Below are positions 2,623 to 13,062 of a stretch of 13,062 bases of DNA, one piece after another. The stretch's first letter is position 1. The number at the start of each line of letters is the position of its first letter. The position numbers and the translations under genes are program-made. The stretch is from the NCBI GenBank assembly GCA_019058275.1, contig JAHLVW010000038.1, positions 1 to 13,062 of the forward strand, read 5' to 3'. Origin of the DNA: Candidatus Heimdallarchaeota archaeon. GTDB taxonomy: Archaea; Asgardarchaeota; Heimdallarchaeia; JABLTI01. The notes below the pieces were generated by a model that was not told the origin of the DNA, made no database searches, and worked only from the letters and a program-made list of their open reading frames with translations.

Positions 2623-3831
2623 TTACAAACCCACTGATTCTTGAGACCTACGTAAAATACGTTTCAATAGTCTCTTTCTTTTTGTTTCAACTTGCAATGT
2701 TTCATTTATCCCTACTAGGAATTTCTCTGCATGGTTTTGCCAGGTACGAGATGCAATCAGTTTCTGACCATTTAATGCAATGGTTTCACGTAATGCTTTA
2801 TCATTAGCTAGACGAAGAATATTCTCTTTAATTTCATGATGATTAAGGACATCGTTAATAAGTAAAGCATTGGTTCCATGAATAATGTCTGGGTCATGGT
2901 CCTTTTCTGCAGTAATTACTGGTACTTGGCAAGTCATAGCTTCGAAAACTGTGAAACAACTGCTTTCGTTTAAAGTAGGAGTTACAAACATATCACAAAC
3001 AGCATAGTGACTTTGGAGTTCTTTTTCAGGTACGAACCCAGTGAAGATAAAACGATCATTATTTTTCCTTGGATGATTAATGAAAAGTTCCTCATTGGGA
3101 CCACCACCAACCATCAATCCGTAAAGATTTGGGTTTTGATCCATAGCATCATCCATAGCTGAGATAATATTATCAACATTTTTTTCAACTGATAAACGTC
3201 CAAGATAACAAGAAATGATGCCTTCTTCTGGAAGATTATAGCGTTTGCGTAAATCAAACTCCGGTTTGGGGTGGAAGGAGTTAGAATTAATGGCAAAAGG
3301 AGTATGATAGATTTTGTCTTCAGGTGCGTCAAACCAAACCAATTTGCGACGAAAACGCTCAGTTGCGTGGAAAAAGACATTGACAATCTTTGTATAGTAT
3401 TTTCGGATAAGCCAAAACAGAAAGCGAACAAAGAATGGCCTGAGTTTAATAATATCTTGAAGGATTACCCGTTCATCGTGGTGGCAAAATAAGCCCACTT
3501 TTTTGCGGAAGAATTTAGCAACTAAACCGCCAACTGTCCCTAAGGGCATCAAAGAATGCAAAACAACAATATCCGACTTTCGTATAGCCCTTGTAAGTCG
3601 CCAGTCTGGAAGGGCAAAAACGTAGGCATTTACTTTAAAGCGAGTAGTAAAAGTTCGAATTATTTTCAAATTTTCTCTTGGGAAAGAAATGTGCTTCTCA
3701 CCTTTAAAGTGGGGGCAGATAATAGACACTTTATGACCTTGTTTAAGTAACTCTGGAATTAAATAATCTAGGTAACGAACAATACCATCGAAGGTAGGAT
3801 GATAGGTGTCAGTTATCATGCAGATTTTCAT
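2623..3831 (-). CDS. Glycosyltransferase family 4 (GT-B fold), copy 2
   Basis: Same motifs as copy 1 (MKICMITDTYHPTFDGI, LGRLSVEKN, NESSCFTVFEAM). Start moved from the TTG at 3876 to the ATG at 3831 by alignment with copy 1 and an upstream AAGGGGA SD-like sequence. Confidence 0.92.
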   Translation of the reverse strand: MKICMITDTYHPTFDGIVRYLDYLIPELLKQGHKVSIICPHFKGEKHISFPRENLKIIRTFTTRFKVNAYVFALPDWRLTRAIRKSDIVVLHSLMPLGTVGGLVAKFFRKKVGLFCHHDERVILQDIIKLRPFFVRFLFWLIRKYYTKIVNVFFHATERFRRKLVWFDAPEDKIYHTPFAINSNSFHPKPEFDLRKRYNLPEEGIISCYLGRLSVEKNVDNIISAMDDAMDQNPNLYGLMVGGGPNEELFINHPRKNNDRFIFTGFVPEKELQSHYAVCDMFVTPTLNESSCFTVFEAMTCQVPVITAEKDHDPDIIHGTNALLINDVLNHHEIKENILRLANDKALRETIALNGQKLIASRTWQNHAEKFLVGINETLQVETKRKRLLKRILRRSQESVGL

Positions 3832-8542: not shown

Positions 8543-9631
8543 TTAGTTATCCCTTCGCAAGTGGTTTTTTTCTGCGATTAGTGGATGGTTTTCATCCTTC
8601 GCAGACCGTTCCTGAAGAATAGCAGTTATTTTTTCTACCCCTTTTTTCGATGGGTTGATGCGTTTCAGCACCAATGACTTAGATAAGAATTTTTCGTTTT
8701 CTTCTTCTTTTTCTTTAGTCGGTAGTGAAACTATCTTTACTCTATTATTCTCGAGTGTTATTTTTCCCTTTTTAAAATCATTGATTAATAGGTTAACTGC
8801 AAGTAGTAGATGCGTTCTCAGTTTGTTGTTTGCATAAGTTATTGTTTCGTAGAATCTCGCGATTGTTTTATTGTAGTATATATAATTGTAGAGTGCATAA
8901 ACTGAGTGTTGTTTTGTCGCTATTTCTTCTGCTACTGCTTTGCAGTCTATCTCTCCGTTTTCATAGTCGTATCTTTTTTCTTCTTTTCTTGGTATCCTTC
9001 TGTTTAGGAATGATGCTAAACCGTCATATTTCCTTATGATTGGTATGAGCCAGTTGTTGTTATTCTGCTCCGATCCATTTTCATGATGTTTCTTGCATGC
9101 TTCTCGAATGAAGCTGTTTGTTATCTCTACTTCGTGGTAGATCTTGCTGCTGTGTTTTTCTGTGTGTACGAAATCATGCAGGAGTAGTGCTTTGATCGCT
9201 GTTTGTAGTGGTTTTGGGTGTTTCCCTAATCCTTTTCTTATTGTTAGTTTCTTTTCTTGAGGAGTCTTTCTTACTGGAGTAATTTCTTGTTGTTCTCTCC
9301 ACTTTATTTTTCCCATTCCGTTTTTTTGATGTGCTCCTAAACCTTCTAGTGATAAGAACCTTTGTAATTTCTCTCTTGCTTGGTTGTTGTTTCCTGGAAA
9401 ATCTACTACCACAAACCCTTGGAAGCATTTTTTGATTGTTGGTGCTTTTCTTACTCCTTTGATGAGTTTTCCATAATATTTTTTTCTTGGATAGGGTAGG
9501 TATCCTTTTTCATTTTCTCGAGGTTCTTTTGTTACGGAAATCTTGCATCCCTTGATATAGAAAAAAGGAGTATTAATGACTATTGGTGTGATTAATTCTC
9601 CTATTAGTCTTGAGCGTTTGTTTTTGGCCAT
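8543..9631 (-). CDS. Cas5-like minimal RAMP domain fused to an HD nuclease-like domain
   Basis: First strand plus ITP motif (LIGELITPIVI) and a glycine-rich loop GLGAHQKNGMGKIKW (about 9311-9343). Then ALLLHD (HD at 9173-9178), a further H, KKHH, IIRKYDGLAS and a late LRTH. The ATG at 9631 has GGAGG upstream and overlaps the upstream RAMP gene by 28 nt. Assignment to the Cas5 group specifically is inference. Confidence 0.7.
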   Translation of the reverse strand: MAKNKRSRLIGELITPIVINTPFFYIKGCKISVTKEPRENEKGYLPYPRKKYYGKLIKGVRKAPTIKKCFQGFVVVDFPGNNNQAREKLQRFLSLEGLGAHQKNGMGKIKWREQQEITPVRKTPQEKKLTIRKGLGKHPKPLQTAIKALLLHDFVHTEKHSSKIYHEVEITNSFIREACKKHHENGSEQNNNNWLIPIIRKYDGLASFLNRRIPRKEEKRYDYENGEIDCKAVAEEIATKQHSVYALYNYIYYNKTIARFYETITYANNKLRTHLLLAVNLLINDFKKGKITLENNRVKIVSLPTKEKEEENEKFLSKSLVLKRINPSKKGVEKITAILQERSAKDENHPLIAEKNHLRRDN

Positions 9632-10407
9632 GCTTTCATCCCTTCCTCCATTTCTTTCCATAGGTTTCGAGTTTTTTCTTCTTCGATTACTTTTCCTTGT
9701 TTGTCAAATTCTCTGCTTCGAACTACTTCTTGGAGTGTTATTTGTTTCAACTGCACTCTTCCTCCTCCATTGTTCACACTAGCCCCTAGTCCTAGTTCTG
9801 GTGCATAGAGTATTGCTTTTAGTAAGAAGCCTAATTCCTCTTGAGTAAGTTCTCCTAGTAATTCTATCTTTATTGTCAGTTCTCCTGAGAAGTATCTCTC
9901 TCCAAAGTCTTGTATGCTGAACTTTGACTTACTCTTTAGTGCGTTTCTTCGTTCTGTAGCTATATGCACTGCCTGGGTGTCTGTTTCCCTCTTTCCTTTG
10001 CTGTTTGCTTCTGAGACAATTATTACTGGTTCAAATTTCAGCTTGGATTGTTTTACTATTGATCCCATTAGCCTGTGCTTGATGCACTCTTTTTCTGGAT
10101 AGCATTTACCGTTAGCATGGAATCCTTCCGGTAGTAGGTTTTCACCTTTTTGGGTTTCCGTTTTATCTGATGTATGACAGATTTCTACTCCTTCTTCTTT
10201 TGCTATTGTCATCATTGCATGATTGATCCAACCACGAATGCCTTTTACTAAGTATCTTTTTCCATTTCCATTGTCTTTCTCTGAGCCATTTCCTAAAAGT
10301 AATAAATTATTTACTTTCCCTCCAACAGCTGGACCATTTCCCGTCTTACTGATGGGTGTTTGGGCGAGAATGACTAGACGTTTGAATTTTCTAGATATTT
10401 CAGTCAT
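9604..10407 (-). CDS. Cas7-group RAMP protein (Csm3-like)
   Basis: RAMP motifs in the canonical order: LVILAQTPIS, KGIRGWINH (cf. slKG.lR), a Cys/His insert ending ECIKHRLMGS (cf. C..C.lFGs), SKLKF, thumb ATERRNAL, ERYFSG and a G-loop GLGASVNNGGGRV (about 9761-9792). ATG at 10407 is preceded by GTGA. Confidence 0.82.
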   Translation of the reverse strand: MTEISRKFKRLVILAQTPISKTGNGPAVGGKVNNLLLLGNGSEKDNGNGKRYLVKGIRGWINHAMMTIAKEEGVEICHTSDKTETQKGENLLPEGFHANGKCYPEKECIKHRLMGSIVKQSKLKFEPVIIVSEANSKGKRETDTQAVHIATERRNALKSKSKFSIQDFGERYFSGELTIKIELLGELTQEELGFLLKAILYAPELGLGASVNNGGGRVQLKQITLQEVVRSREFDKQGKVIEEEKTRNLWKEMEEGMKAWPKTNAQD

Positions 10408-10550
10408 AATAATCACTTATTATATTTATTATTTCTATTAAATATGCTAAAATTAGCAAATATAAACCCCTCGCTAATAGCTTTAATAATACTTTATATA
10501 TTATTTTTACAATACATAGAATAAGAACCAAAATCCTAAGAGGGAAACTT
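10408..10550. promoter_or_regulatory. Divergent promoter region with a palindromic candidate operator
   Basis: TATA-like TTTATATA on + (10493-10500) and TTTATATTT on - (10458-10466), each about 50 nt from its ATG. Perfect inverted repeat TGCTAA-AA-TTAGCA at 10445-10458 and a related GCTA-A-TAGC at 10473-10481. Confidence 0.55.
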
Positions 10551-10715
10551 ATGAAATTTATAGGTAGTTCAAAAGTCACAAGACAAGGGCAAGTATCAAT
10601 ACCAGCGGATATTAGGAGAAAATTAGCTATTTCGATAGGTGATCATATTGTCTTCGTGGAAGACAAAAATGGTCGCATTTTTATAACAAAGGAGATTTCT
10701 CTCCCTCCAGAATGA
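10551..10715 (+). CDS. AbrB/MazE/SpoVT-family DNA-binding protein, 54 aa (not in the ORF track)
   Basis: Manual translation gives MKFIGSSKVTRQGQVSIPADIRRKLAISIGDHIVFVEDKNGRIFITKEISLPPE, matching the swapped-hairpin signature (KV..xGQxxIP..IR..L.I..GD). Confidence 0.92.
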   Translation: MKFIGSSKVTRQGQVSIPADIRRKLAISIGDHIVFVEDKNGRIFITKEISLPPE

Positions 10716-10785
10716 ACACACTAGGTTATTTTGTGTGATGTTTATTATTTGAGATTATTAATTATCAGATGAAGATGAGGATAGT

Positions 10786-12399
10786 ATGACACTTACTTGG
10801 ACTAATGATCCCCAATTATTAGATAAACATCCAATTAACTATAACAATTGGGAAACCGCAAATACACTCATAGAACAGGAAGGACTAAAACGCGTTATTA
10901 ATGAAGACCTTTCTTTCACAAATCTGTATGGTATTATGGTTCGAAAGATTGATTTTGTCCGGAAAAAAAAGAGTGATCGTATCATAGCAAGATTTTCTTT
11001 TCTCGTAATAACTGATGAACAGAAAGAACAGATTCAAGCAAAGATTCTCCTCATTGCTGAAGCTGCTCGAGATTATTTTTATCGATCGATCAATAAGTCA
11101 ATTCTTACTTGGCGAGATGTACTTGCTGATTATCTTGAACGAGGAGCCATTCCTTTCCCACTATTTCGTTGTGCTCAAGCAGTTATCCCAGATTTACAAT
11201 TACCTGTAAGAAATAGCCAAATCTCTTTCACCAGTGCTCGAGGGGAAGCATTCACTTTTCCGCTTTGCATAACGAAACCTTTAGCTTACCTTTGTGGTGT
11301 CTGCAACGGTGATGGTAATCTTCGGAACTACTGGGTAATTATTGTTGATGAAACAAAAAAACACATTATAAACTTGTCAAATATGCTTGGTGATTTATTT
11401 GGTAAAAAAGGACATATAATGCAAGATAAAGGAGCTTGGGTAGTAAAGCTAAATCTTTTATGGACTGCCAGGTTGTTTAATTTCATTACCGATCAAACAA
11501 TCAATGCTCCAAAGTATGATTCCTTAAGAGAACCATTGCTATTTCAACAACTAGGAGCTCCCTACAGAAACTTATACTGGCGAGGAGTTTTTGACTCGGA
11601 TGGGTCATTTAAAAACCAATTAACTTTTTGCTCTATTAGTGCACATTTATGTGAAGATTTTCAGAGCTTTCTTACAGATGTATCTATCACTAATAAATTA
11701 ATAGAACAAAAAATTGGTGGTTACCAAGTTAAGATTCCAGCCAGAGAAAAGCTAAAATTTGCACAAGAAATAGGTTCATTACACAGTAAGAAAATAGTGG
11801 ATTTCATTGCTTTTTTAGAGAAATCTCTTCCTTCAATTCAATTTCAAGGATTTAATAATCAAAATCTGACTTCTACTGGTTTCTTTAATTTTCATTTACT
11901 GCCAACAATGTCTGTGTTAGGATTGGAACAGTTTTTTAAAAATGCACAACCAACTTTACAAGAATTGCTTTCCACTAAAGAAATACGTCGTTACACAAAT
12001 GGTAAAGGAATTACTATTAGAAAATTAGCTTCTTTATTATCGTCCCAAAAAACTGATTTAATGGAGTTTTTAAATAATTTTCATGAAAAACTATTCTTCC
12101 AATCTTCTATCTCATCAAAAATTAAACTTTATTTGAAGCCAACTAATGAATTTGCAAAAACCTTGAAGTTTATAGTTCCAACCACAAGAGGTGCAACACT
12201 ATATGGAGAAACCCAAGTCATAACTATTATAATTGAAAAGCAATTTTCCATATCAATTCAAAATAACAAAATCCAAAATAAGTTACTAAGTAAATATTTC
12301 CGAACTTTTTGTGTTTATGCTCCATCGGAAAAGGAACTTGAAAATAAAGACGAATTCATCTTATCTTGGAAAAAAGACATAATTTCTCCAGAAAATTAG
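10786..12399 (+). CDS. Free-standing double-motif LAGLIDADG endonuclease-like protein with N- and C-terminal extensions
   Basis: Two LAGLIDADG-type helices: LAYLCGVCNGDG (11281-11316) and YWRGVFDSDG (11575-11604), about 100 aa apart. It has its own start with GAGG upstream, and no intein splice termini are visible. Confidence 0.8.
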   Translation: MTLTWTNDPQLLDKHPINYNNWETANTLIEQEGLKRVINEDLSFTNLYGIMVRKIDFVRKKKSDRIIARFSFLVITDEQKEQIQAKILLIAEAARDYFYRSINKSILTWRDVLADYLERGAIPFPLFRCAQAVIPDLQLPVRNSQISFTSARGEAFTFPLCITKPLAYLCGVCNGDGNLRNYWVIIVDETKKHIINLSNMLGDLFGKKGHIMQDKGAWVVKLNLLWTARLFNFITDQTINAPKYDSLREPLLFQQLGAPYRNLYWRGVFDSDGSFKNQLTFCSISAHLCEDFQSFLTDVSITNKLIEQKIGGYQVKIPAREKLKFAQEIGSLHSKKIVDFIAFLEKSLPSIQFQGFNNQNLTSTGFFNFHLLPTMSVLGLEQFFKNAQPTLQELLSTKEIRRYTNGKGITIRKLASLLSSQKTDLMEFLNNFHEKLFFQSSISSKIKLYLKPTNEFAKTLKFIVPTTRGATLYGETQVITIIIEKQFSISIQNNKIQNKLLSKYFRTFCVYAPSEKELENKDEFILSWKKDIISPEN

Positions 12400-12699
12400 A
12401 AATACCAGAGCATAAAAAAAATAAGTCTATCAGAGGGGACTGTTCGAAGATTTTAGCAGTGAGAAACAAGTCTAACAGTTGTTTGGGTTTGATATATAGT
12501 TGTTTTGCTGAACTGGGCTTTAGGAATCGTTCTTTCCTTGAAAGAGGTTATCTCCTTCCTTATTCCAGTGTTCTTTTTAACCTTCGTTTTTCCTCTTGTT
12601 CGTTTTTTTGTGATTTGGTTCTTTTTCGTTCTTTTTCATCCGATTTTTTGTGATAGTATTTTGCTTTCTTGCTTAATTTTCTCCCCATTTTAAGCTCTT

Positions 12700-12944
12700 T
12701 TTTGTTCTAAAGGTTGTCGAGTGTTGGTACGTACTATTTAAAGTCTTTCCTTGACATGAGACCCGCCAGCTTTGAGTTGAAAAGAAACCTTCTCCTACCT
12801 TCTTTTTGTTATTCTTTCTTCAAAATCTGTCGAGTCTTTTTAAAGGGTGTACCACTTTGGGTACCCGACAAGATGGGTCATCGAAATCTTTTTCTAGATC
12901 CAGGAGAATAGCTTTTTCACCTCTTAGGCGCTTCTGGAGCGTCC
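12700..12944 (+). promoter_or_regulatory. Putative CRISPR leader / promoter region
   Basis: No convincing ORF. TATA-like TTTAAA elements near 12737-12742 and 12837-12844, each downstream of a TGTCGAGT 8-mer (12715-12722, 12828-12835). It adjoins the intact repeat. Boundaries are approximate. Confidence 0.4.
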
Positions 12945-13058
12945 GTTGCAAAAGTAAAAGCTCAATTATGAGTATTGAAATCCAGGTACATGGACTCCAG
13001 GAGTTTTAGAAGCTACTGAAGGTTGCAAAATAAAAAGCTCAATAATATGTAGTGATAG
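12945..13058 (+). CRISPR. CRISPR-like mini-array: 37-nt repeat, 40-nt spacer, degenerate 37-nt repeat
   Basis: R1 (12945-12981) GTTGCAAAAGTAAAAGCTCAATTATGAGTATTGAAAT; spacer 12982-13021; R2 (13022-13058) GTTGCAAAATAAAAAGCTCAATAATATGTAGTGATAG. The repeats are 29/37 identical without gaps. R1 has the GTT...ATTGAAAN ends of class 1 repeats and a GCTCA/TGAGT hairpin just before the last 8 nt. The window ends 4 nt after R2. Confidence 0.72.
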
Positions 13059-13062
13059 GAGG

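Follow-up and report, generated by a model that had tools for sequence, protein, structure and literature searches.

A copy of the Asgard ARAMP cassette beside a CRISPR array that is probably not its own

ARAMP is described in reviews as an Asgard-specific, type III-derived module that combines diverged Cas7 and Cas5 proteins and is array-less, with nucleases that are mostly of the HNH or PD-(D/E)xK type and a distinct Cas1 in most loci (PMC8730458, PMC12669027). HRAMP, a distantly related haloarchaeal module, is outlined in one of these reviews as array-less, with highly diverged Cas5/Cas7 proteins and extra nucleases (PMC8730458). Here we analyze a locus on a contig of Candidatus Heimdallarchaeota archaeon (assembly GCA_019058275.1, contig JAHLVW010000038.1) that encodes a Cas7-like protein and a Cas5-like protein fused to an HD domain, and that runs into CRISPR repeats at its right end. 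Its RAMP genes are one copy of the already catalogued ARAMP cassette, and we consider it probable that this copy lies next to an ordinary array that is not its own, its RNA partner being an RNA from the 3' end of its own second gene. ARAMP was reportedly catalogued by Makarova, Wolf, Shmakov, Liu, Li and Koonin in 2020, CRISPR J 3:156, and HRAMP is said to go back to Makarova et al. 2019, FEMS Microbiol Lett 366:fnz079.

The window, that is, the whole stretch analyzed, comprises all 13,062 bp of contig C25 of a 118-contig, 4.1-Mb metagenome-assembled genome (MAG) that is 93% complete. We label this source MAG G000 and its contigs C4, C25, C91 and so forth; other genomes carry labels of the form G0xx and loci of the form L0xx. 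L017 stands for the near-identical sister genome GCA_019058195.1, and L018 coordinates refer to its intact locus. The part of the cassette that lies in the window consists of the following features:

8543..9661, minus strand: RAMP-HD protein, 372 amino acids (aa); likely start M11 at 9631; overlaps the Cas7-like gene

8551..8717, minus strand: structured RNA element in the RAMP-HD 3' end, recognized by covariation and covariance model R1

9604..10416, minus strand: Cas7/Csm3-like RAMP protein, 270 aa; likely start M4 at 10407

10551..10715, plus strand: AbrB/MazE-fold (SpoVT-AbrB) protein, 54 aa; PF04014 and TIGR01439; divergent from the RAMP operon

10786..12399, plus strand: p537, LAGLIDADG-like protein, 537 aa; LAGLIDADG_3 and Atlas neighbours

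The 372-aa RAMP-HD protein has 72 homologues and is without a Pfam domain; in PADLOC it gives a Cmr1 match (1.2e-4). Its family profile found nothing significant among the sequences of the PDB (best Csm3, E 0.4), so that a fold search was needed. In the AlphaFold (AF2) model (pLDDT 78.5), residues 14-135 are predicted to form a single Cas5-like RAMP domain with a G-rich loop (G109..G115xG117..W121). Foldseek matched this domain to type III/VII RAMP subunits with a probability of 0.96-1.0, and VIA-align placed it with Csm4, type IV Csf, Cmr3, Cas6 C-domains and type VII Cas5 (Z 6-8). Residues 149-312 correspond to a Cas10/Csm1-type HD domain (VIA-align, 6mua_A Z 8.1 and 6ifk_A Z 8.0), in which H162 D163, H170, H192 H193, D213 and H284 are invariant among 28 homologues. 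The remaining C-terminal residues, 316-372, are predicted to be disordered. Such a Cas5-HD fusion would represent a clean natural case of a class 1 effector whose HD nuclease survived the loss of Cas10.

The 270-aa protein encoded upstream gives a weak Csm3 match in PADLOC (8.5e-5). It has 101 homologues, nearly all of them in Asgard MAGs and many with a precomputed PF03787 RAMP domain. A profile built from 29 of these Cas7-like sequences matched type VII Cas7 best in the PDB (1.3e-4), with Cas7-11 next. The alignment exhibits an invariant Cys/His cluster (C80 H81 C105 C111 H114) and a retained C-terminal G-rich loop, and no Asp is invariant at the position of the Csm3 RNase residue. The initial annotation, made from the letters of the window, had called a Cas7-like protein and a Cas5-HD fusion; structure prediction, Foldseek and the family profile all point to the same assignment. 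It had likewise listed two overlapping RAMP reading frames, a divergent AbrB gene, a LAGLIDADG-type gene and two repeat copies, all of which we located in the window. Family-profile and PADLOC scans also agreed with its statement that canonical cas genes are absent, as cas1, cas2, cas3, cas6, cas8 and cas10 were not found among the window proteins.

The genes for the Cas7-like and RAMP-HD proteins are neighbours in almost all of 36 further ARAMP loci, which we collected from GTDB representatives with up to 10 kb on each side. A complex of the two proteins was predicted with an interface ipSAE of 0.68 (best control 0.00), a mark attained by 58 of 80 solved complexes and by 2 of 110 mismatched pairs; at least 76% of the contacts were in common between runs, and partner pLDDT was at least 78. 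As Csm3-Csm4 complexes have already been solved, the predicted interface may mirror a mere likeness to complexes of that type.

In the sister genome, an identical RAMP-HD protein is encoded on a 2.26-Mb contig on which the locus is intact. There, the gene order starts with HTH-240, genes for proteins of 688 and 225 aa and a 245-aa PD-(D/E)xK protein, small genes and a CRISPR array (array 2), and continues with genes of 132, 197 and 217 aa, array 1, a leader, p537, AbrB, Cas7-like, RAMP-HD and EF-2. In the source MAG the same genes are spread over C91, C4 and C25, and the genes for the 688-aa and PD-(D/E)xK proteins would lie 8-10 kb past the end of C25. The 688-aa protein (C91; L018:7920-9986) has a Cas1 fold: its top 50 fold matches are all Cas1 or casposase (best E 2.8e-6), and it combines an N-terminal winged helix-turn-helix (wHTH) with two Cys4 clusters (Zn fingers) and invariant H510 and D523. 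Its family profile detected the N-terminal wHTH alone among PDB sequences, Cas1 being visible by fold only, and a paralogue gives a weak PF01867 match. The 245-aa protein, which we refer to as Cas4-like, matches PDDEXK_1 (9.2e-17) and occurs both in the sister locus and on C91.

Every listed ARAMP component is thus present. Diverged type III-like Cas7 and Cas5 occur together with a PD-(D/E)xK nuclease and a distinct large Cas1, and the hosts are Asgard archaea, all named homologues coming from Heimdall-, Hod-, Thor- and Promethearchaeota or Borrarchaeum MAGs except for a few records that are probably mis-binned. The RAMP genes of the window are therefore one copy of the catalogued ARAMP cassette, with the fused HD domain as a putative second nuclease besides the PD-(D/E)xK protein. 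An overlap with ARAMP had been suspected in the initial annotation and is substantiated by the Asgard-only homologues and by the Cas1-fold and PD-(D/E)xK partners. Its picture of a two-protein system has to be given up, as the two proteins belong to a larger cassette that comprises about seven genes. The RAMP operon had also been described as having non-cas genes at either end, which is true of the EF-2 side only; on the other side follow two arrays and then the genes for the Cas4-like PD-(D/E)xK protein and the 688-aa Cas1-fold protein.

The cassette recurs within the source genome. We found at least six RAMP pairs (C25, C88, C89, C11, C105, with partial copies on C82 and C86), and the Cas7-like proteins of the other copies are 62-67% identical to that of C25. 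A p537 paralogue stands divergently beside the RAMP pair at four of these paralogue loci, and a block of genes for p537, about 250 aa, about 620-690 aa, about 225 aa and a PD-(D/E)xK protein is repeated on C16, C48 and C89.

The 3' end of the RAMP-HD gene attracted attention at the RNA level: it codes for the disordered tail, yet is strongly conserved in nucleotide sequence. In an alignment of the last ~190 nucleotides (nt) of the gene from six EF-2-adjacent orthologues, RNAalifold predicted 7 helices with 41 pairs, 15 of which exhibit compensatory changes. Paired cells amounted to 90.6%, as compared to 38-48% when the partners were slid, and none of 500 shuffles attained the observed values. 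A covariance model built from this alignment (R1) recovered the element on the gene strand at the RAMP-HD 3' end in nine other copies searched, none of them adjacent to EF-2 (E 5.6e-11 to 1.6e-3; ten loci, as L060 and L080 cover the same C11 copy). A search of the whole MAG located it on C86 and C89. We considered an EF-2 5' leader and rejected it, as the element also lies behind RAMP-HD genes that are not beside EF-2. This distribution supports the view that the structured RNA is intrinsic to the ARAMP module, in which it may be a guide, a scaffold or a regulator, and we regard it as a better candidate for the RNA partner of the RAMP pair than the array.

The right end of the window contains the CRISPR features, which follow p537 across 545 nt of non-coding DNA up to the first repeat:

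12424..12652, no strand assigned: 'element A', a conserved non-coding block, recognized by identity across genomes

12700..12944, plus strand: CRISPR leader, 245 nt; homologous copies at other 37-nt-repeat arrays

12945..12981, plus strand: first CRISPR repeat, 37 nt; hairpin, then 8-nt handle AUUGAAAU

12982..13021, plus strand: leader-proximal spacer, 40 nt; unique to this assembly

13022..13058, plus strand: second repeat copy, with 7-8 mismatches

Contig C25 ends 4 nt past the second repeat copy, that is, inside the CRISPR array. An identical 37-nt repeat opens contig C4, where four more copies follow before a trailer that matches that of the sister genome. At this site, the sister genome (GCA_019058195.1) has 7 repeats and 6 spacers, and L016, a third genome, has 7 repeats and, between them, six different spacers. 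Spacer lengths are 38-41 nt across the window, C4 and the sister genome. C4 and the sister genome have one older spacer in common and differ in their leader-proximal spacers. In contigs from four metagenome runs, at least five different spacers follow the repeat, at a depth several-fold above the flanks. Near-identical repeats (at least three), unique and regular spacers, a leader and strain-to-strain spacer turnover are thus all present. The repeats at 12945-13058 are therefore the leader-proximal end of a multi-spacer array, cut by the contig end, that is actively acquiring spacers, because strains sharing an older spacer differ next to the leader. What had been taken for a single-spacer mini-array is an assembly artefact: C25 ends inside the array, C4 continues it and the sister genome has 7 repeats.

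The four metagenome runs gave no contig cover for window positions 12846-12944 and 13004-13062, the latter including the second repeat copy (13022-13058), which is either degenerate or an error of the assembly tip. The window spacer had no exact match in viral or metagenome contigs, and its repeat-spacer junction was absent from the metagenome contigs. A short hairpin (GCUCA-AUUA-UGAGU) forms in the repeat ahead of the 8-nt handle AUUGAAAU, an arrangement typical of Cas6 substrates. Within the leader, 99 nt (12846-12944) are present in the window and in L016 and deleted in L017, and the same deletion (joining 12845 to 12945) is the dominant form in two metagenome runs.

The leader and repeat recur at canonical cas loci. 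Leader copies with 70-80% identity lie beside repeats on C76, C39, C91 and C42, and homologous leaders stand beside canonical Cas1 orthologues in G004, G010 and G011. C76 carries cas4-cas2-cas1 next to the homologous leader and a 37-nt repeat, and in G010 (contig C15) a 14-repeat array of this class adjoins genes for Cas8b, Cas7b, Cas5b, Cas3, Cas6, Cas4, Cas2 and Cas1. Of this G010 set, the source MAG retains Cas1, Cas2, Cas4, a 306-aa neighbour and Cas6 on C76 and C74, all at contig ends; the Cas6, at the end of C74, is 64% identical to that of G010. Judged by these neighbourhoods, the repeat class of the window is associated with type I-B in this genus. The idea of a dedicated single guide was not borne out, as an ordinary acquiring array with a leader and repeat of the type I-B class was found in its place. 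Within about 20 kb of the array in the intact sister genome there is no canonical cas gene. The C76 Cas1 had no exact-sequence match on record among public assemblies. The source genome also has a second, canonical type I-B-like operon (C26:7800-16956 and C68; Cas6, Cas7b, Cas3, Cas1), whose array of at least 11 units has a different, 30-nt repeat with the same handle, GTATTGAAAT, as the 37-nt repeat.

We asked how far the array travels with the RAMP module. Neither arrays (at least three repeats) nor any copy of this repeat occurred at the 36 other ARAMP loci, the very outcome that the initial annotation had named as speaking against its reading, and at least five other RAMP modules in the source genome have no array nearby. 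At L020, where the Cas7-like protein is 93% identical, element A is present after p537; no leader or repeat lies in the 230 nt left before the contig end. Between the sister genome and L016, the segment from the Cas1-fold gene to array 2 is 98.9% identical (4.3 kb), the array-1 block 94% and the leader 87%, as compared to 84.7% for the stretch from the Cas7-like gene to EF-2 and about 70% for p537. Judged by identity, the array island was exchanged recently and has a history that is not that of the RAMP genes, because it is 94-99% identical where the RAMP genes are ~85% identical. The spacers of array 2, identical between C4 and L016, had been considered as a selected, fixed guide; we rejected this, as the whole 4.3-kb segment is 98.9% identical. 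The identity mosaic between L017 and L016 has its breakpoints at the arrays, a position that points to recombination mediated by CRISPR repeats.

Some further observations concern the surroundings of the arrays. Array 2 is leaderless and degenerate. Between it and array 1 lie genes of 217, 197 and 132 aa (C4:407-2021; L018:14298-15915). The 132-aa gene gives a weak HEPN match, and the 197-aa gene has hypothetical proteins only as Atlas neighbours; in G008, a genome of the same genus, homologues of both genes again stand before a repeat (contig C42), and a Cas6 gene is close by. On C42 of the source MAG (56-2084; L010), genes for an RmrA/CapP-like HTH-metallopeptidase (382 aa) and a 163-aa protein have 37-nt repeat copies on both sides and form a second gene cassette embedded between repeats. 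At the start of C91 (positions 1-600), an array with a second leader and at least two repeats is divergent from the Cas1-fold operon; of the same array, the sister genome (L018:6680-7170) retains a truncated half-repeat only. Upstream of that leader there is another partial repeat, which gives the impression of an array nested within another.

Based on these results, we suggest that the Cas7-like and the Cas5-like/HD proteins probably assemble into a small ribonucleoprotein of type III descent, whose nuclease would be the fused Cas10-type HD domain in place of Cas10. The structured RNA from the 3' end of the second gene would most likely be its RNA partner, rather than the array. AbrB would act as the local regulator of the cassette, the rest of which would be made up by p537 and the genes for the 688-aa Cas1-fold and the Cas4-like PD-(D/E)xK proteins. 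The array could be processed by the Cas6 of C74 and extended by the Cas1-Cas2-Cas4 of C76. The analysis itself shows the predicted folds, the pairing of the two genes, the conserved HD residues, the content of the cassette, the nature of the array and the covariation of the RNA; that the proteins associate, bind RNA and act as a nuclease, and which RNA serves as guide, we infer.

Several observations weigh against this proposal. In three genomes the cassette has leader-bearing arrays on both flanks, one directly after p537 (window, L016, L017) and the other divergently upstream of the Cas1-fold operon (C91), which exceeds a single chance adjacency. Type III-derived RAMP complexes can share type I arrays via the 8-nt handle, so that crRNA (CRISPR RNA) loading in trans would be mechanistically easy. 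Orthologues of Cas8b, Cas5b, Cas7b and Cas3 of the G010 set, the type I-B effector for this repeat class, were not found in the 93%-complete MAG and have either been lost or not been binned. Instead of supplying a guide, the structured RNA could have a cis-regulatory function or serve for stabilization. These points bear on the alternative that, in this lineage, the array-equipped ARAMP is a compact crRNA-guided system with multi-spacer arrays, which we regard as unlikely; it is the idea of the initial annotation, adapted to arrays of several spacers. A Cas6 acting in trans would make crRNAs with the AUUGAAAU handle, the Cas5-like domain would bind the handle, the Cas7-like protein would coat the spacer and the fused HD domain would cut the target, while the Cas1-fold and Cas4-like genes by the leader may add spacers. 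In its favour, the whole cassette is interleaved with three arrays that acquire spacers, and the closest solved relatives of both RAMP proteins are crRNA-binding type III/VII subunits. In addition, 37-nt repeats lie near other cassette genes, namely a p537 paralogue on C104 and a PD-(D/E)xK fragment on C117 and, in G010, a RAMP-HD fragment on C12 and a p299-like gene on C27. Against it stand the lack of arrays at the other loci (0 of 36) and at the at least five further modules of the same genome, a leader and repeat that are those of canonical cas4-cas2-cas1 and type I-B loci, an array island whose presence at this site is far more recent than that of the RAMP genes, and the existence of a conserved RNA that belongs to the module itself. 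Each genome holds more than 20 p537 genes and at least six modules, so that a certain number of adjacencies would be expected within defence islands. Canonical Cas1 was not matched in two of five other ARAMP genomes searched and PF01881 Cas6 in none of the five, although MAG incompleteness weakens both results. Quite unlikely, in our view, is the more specific claim that the ARAMP cassette has captured growing arrays and turned into an adaptation-competent, crRNA-guided minimal class 1 system without a large subunit; if true, it would overturn the description of ARAMP as array-less, and the 3'-end RNA would be an extra scaffold or regulator.

In a different reading, the cassette is mainly a mobile or selfish 'aCas1' element (p537, Cas1-fold and PD-(D/E)xK genes) with the RAMP pair as cargo or for maintenance; the arrays would then be merely favoured sites of recombination or insertion, and there would be no guide-RNA immunity. 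The more than 20 p537 paralogues per genome, the presence of the cassette at several loci in varied order, the mosaic identity with breakpoints at arrays, the gene cassettes between repeats on C4 and C42 and the half-repeat left where the sister genome lost array 3 would all fit. Terminal inverted repeats or target-site duplications were not seen, no search aimed at them having been made. Across distant copies, purifying selection acts on both the catalytic residues of RAMP-HD and the RNA structure, which argues for a working ribonucleoprotein, whether it is the host or the element that benefits. We regard the selfish-element explanation as very unlikely and retain, as probable, an ARAMP copy that uses its own 3'-end RNA beside an array that is not its own.

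The genes that accompany the RAMP pair are in part specific to this subfamily. AbrB has a swapped-hairpin AbrB/MazE DNA-binding domain, with matches to PF04014 (7e-12, 45.6 bits at a cut-off of 24.7) and TIGR01439 (1.9e-11, 43.5 bits at a cut-off of 28.3). It occupies the same position in seven other loci (L016, with two copies, L017, L020, L021, L022, L025 and L027), is absent from the remaining paralogue modules of the source genome and is probably a transcriptional regulator of this ARAMP subfamily. The LAGLIDADG_3 match of p537 is borderline (E 1.4e-4, right at the cut-off; 3e-4 for the paralogue p531), and its neighbours in the language-model Atlas are LAGLIDADG-like (0.81). Within the Heimdall clade, p537 belongs to the core neighbourhood of ARAMP modules. 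Its more than 20 paralogues in this one genome, 30-66% identical and often located beside ARAMP, Cas1-fold and PD-(D/E)xK genes, suggest by their number a mobile or homing-type gene.

Element A, ~230 nt, has an identity of ~92% between genomes in which that of the neighbouring proteins is 70-93%. The motifs CCGATTTTTTGTGA and TTTTTTTGTGATT occur in it, and C71 of the source MAG carries another copy of the element (3039-3268). In metagenome contigs its depth is 2-3x higher, with alternative upstream joins. A structured RNA was considered and rejected (z-scores 0.7 and -0.3, no compensatory pairs, no Rfam match); element A may serve as a regulatory site or belong to the leader as its distal portion. 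The window as a whole had no match in Rfam and tRNA scans. Housekeeping genes fill the left 8.5 kb of the window (CCA-adding enzyme, two GT4 glycosyltransferases, HhH-GPD glycosylase, EF-2).

ARAMP is a catalogued CRISPR derivative, and the present locus offers a useful experimental entry point to it. It belongs to the only ARAMP lineage found here between leader-bearing arrays, and it comes with a defined Cas6 in the same genome and a well-supported structured RNA in its own 3' end. The reading as a new minimal effector with its own one-spacer guide is corrected to a contig-end artefact beside a known cassette.

Among known systems, the best matches in structure come from type III (Csm/Cmr): Csm1 residues 1-227 for the HD domain (Z 8), Csm4/Cmr3 for the RAMP domain and Csm3 models for the Cas7-like protein. 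Type III complexes often use the arrays and the Cas6 of co-resident type I systems. The present locus differs in that the HD domain is located at the C-terminus of a Cas5-like RAMP rather than on Cas10, in the lack of Cas11 and in the Cas7-like protein, in which the Asp of the Csm3 RNase site is not invariant. Cas10 or its palm/cyclase had no match in the window or in the 20-kb sister locus, so that of Cas10 the HD part alone survives there.

Type VII (8yhd, 8z4j, 9j9e) is likewise a reduced type III derivative. It supplies the best PDB match of the Cas7-like profile (1.3e-4), and the RAMP domain matches 8yhd_G (Z 6.5); this and like type VII chains we take, from chain length, to be Cas5. Type VII relies on the beta-CASP nuclease Cas14, in contrast to the HD domain of the present locus, among whose proteins (the search being confined to the locus) there was no beta-CASP/metallo-beta-lactamase family match. 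Type VII loci own their arrays. In type IV-C, the large subunit Csf1 is described as having a C-terminal Cas10-like HD domain (PMC8730458). Like the present system, it is a class 1 effector in reduced form, in which a Cas10-type HD domain persists without the palm, and the fold matches include type IV Cas5/Cas7 chains (7xfz_B Z 7.6, 8rc2_F Z 6.6). The HD domain belongs to the large subunit in IV-C and to Cas5 here, and type IV has Csf1, often DinG and Cas6, with arrays, none of these being part of the present module.

With the type I-B arrays of the genus (G010:C15, C76), the window array shares the hairpin loop, the class of 8-nt handle, a homologous leader and polarized acquisition, differing in that it is an 'orphan' copy inside an ARAMP cassette. 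HRAMP, by its description in the review, is similar as an array-less module of diverged Cas5/Cas7 with extra nucleases, and different in its phylum and in being without Cas1. ARAMP, compared through the descriptions in the reviews, agrees with the present locus in its diverged Cas7 and Cas5, its PD-(D/E)xK protein and its large Cas1. As far as those descriptions go, the differences are an AbrB gene carried by this subfamily and the position of this copy and its orthologues in two genomes, which lie between leader-bearing arrays of the type I-B class while ARAMP is described as array-less.

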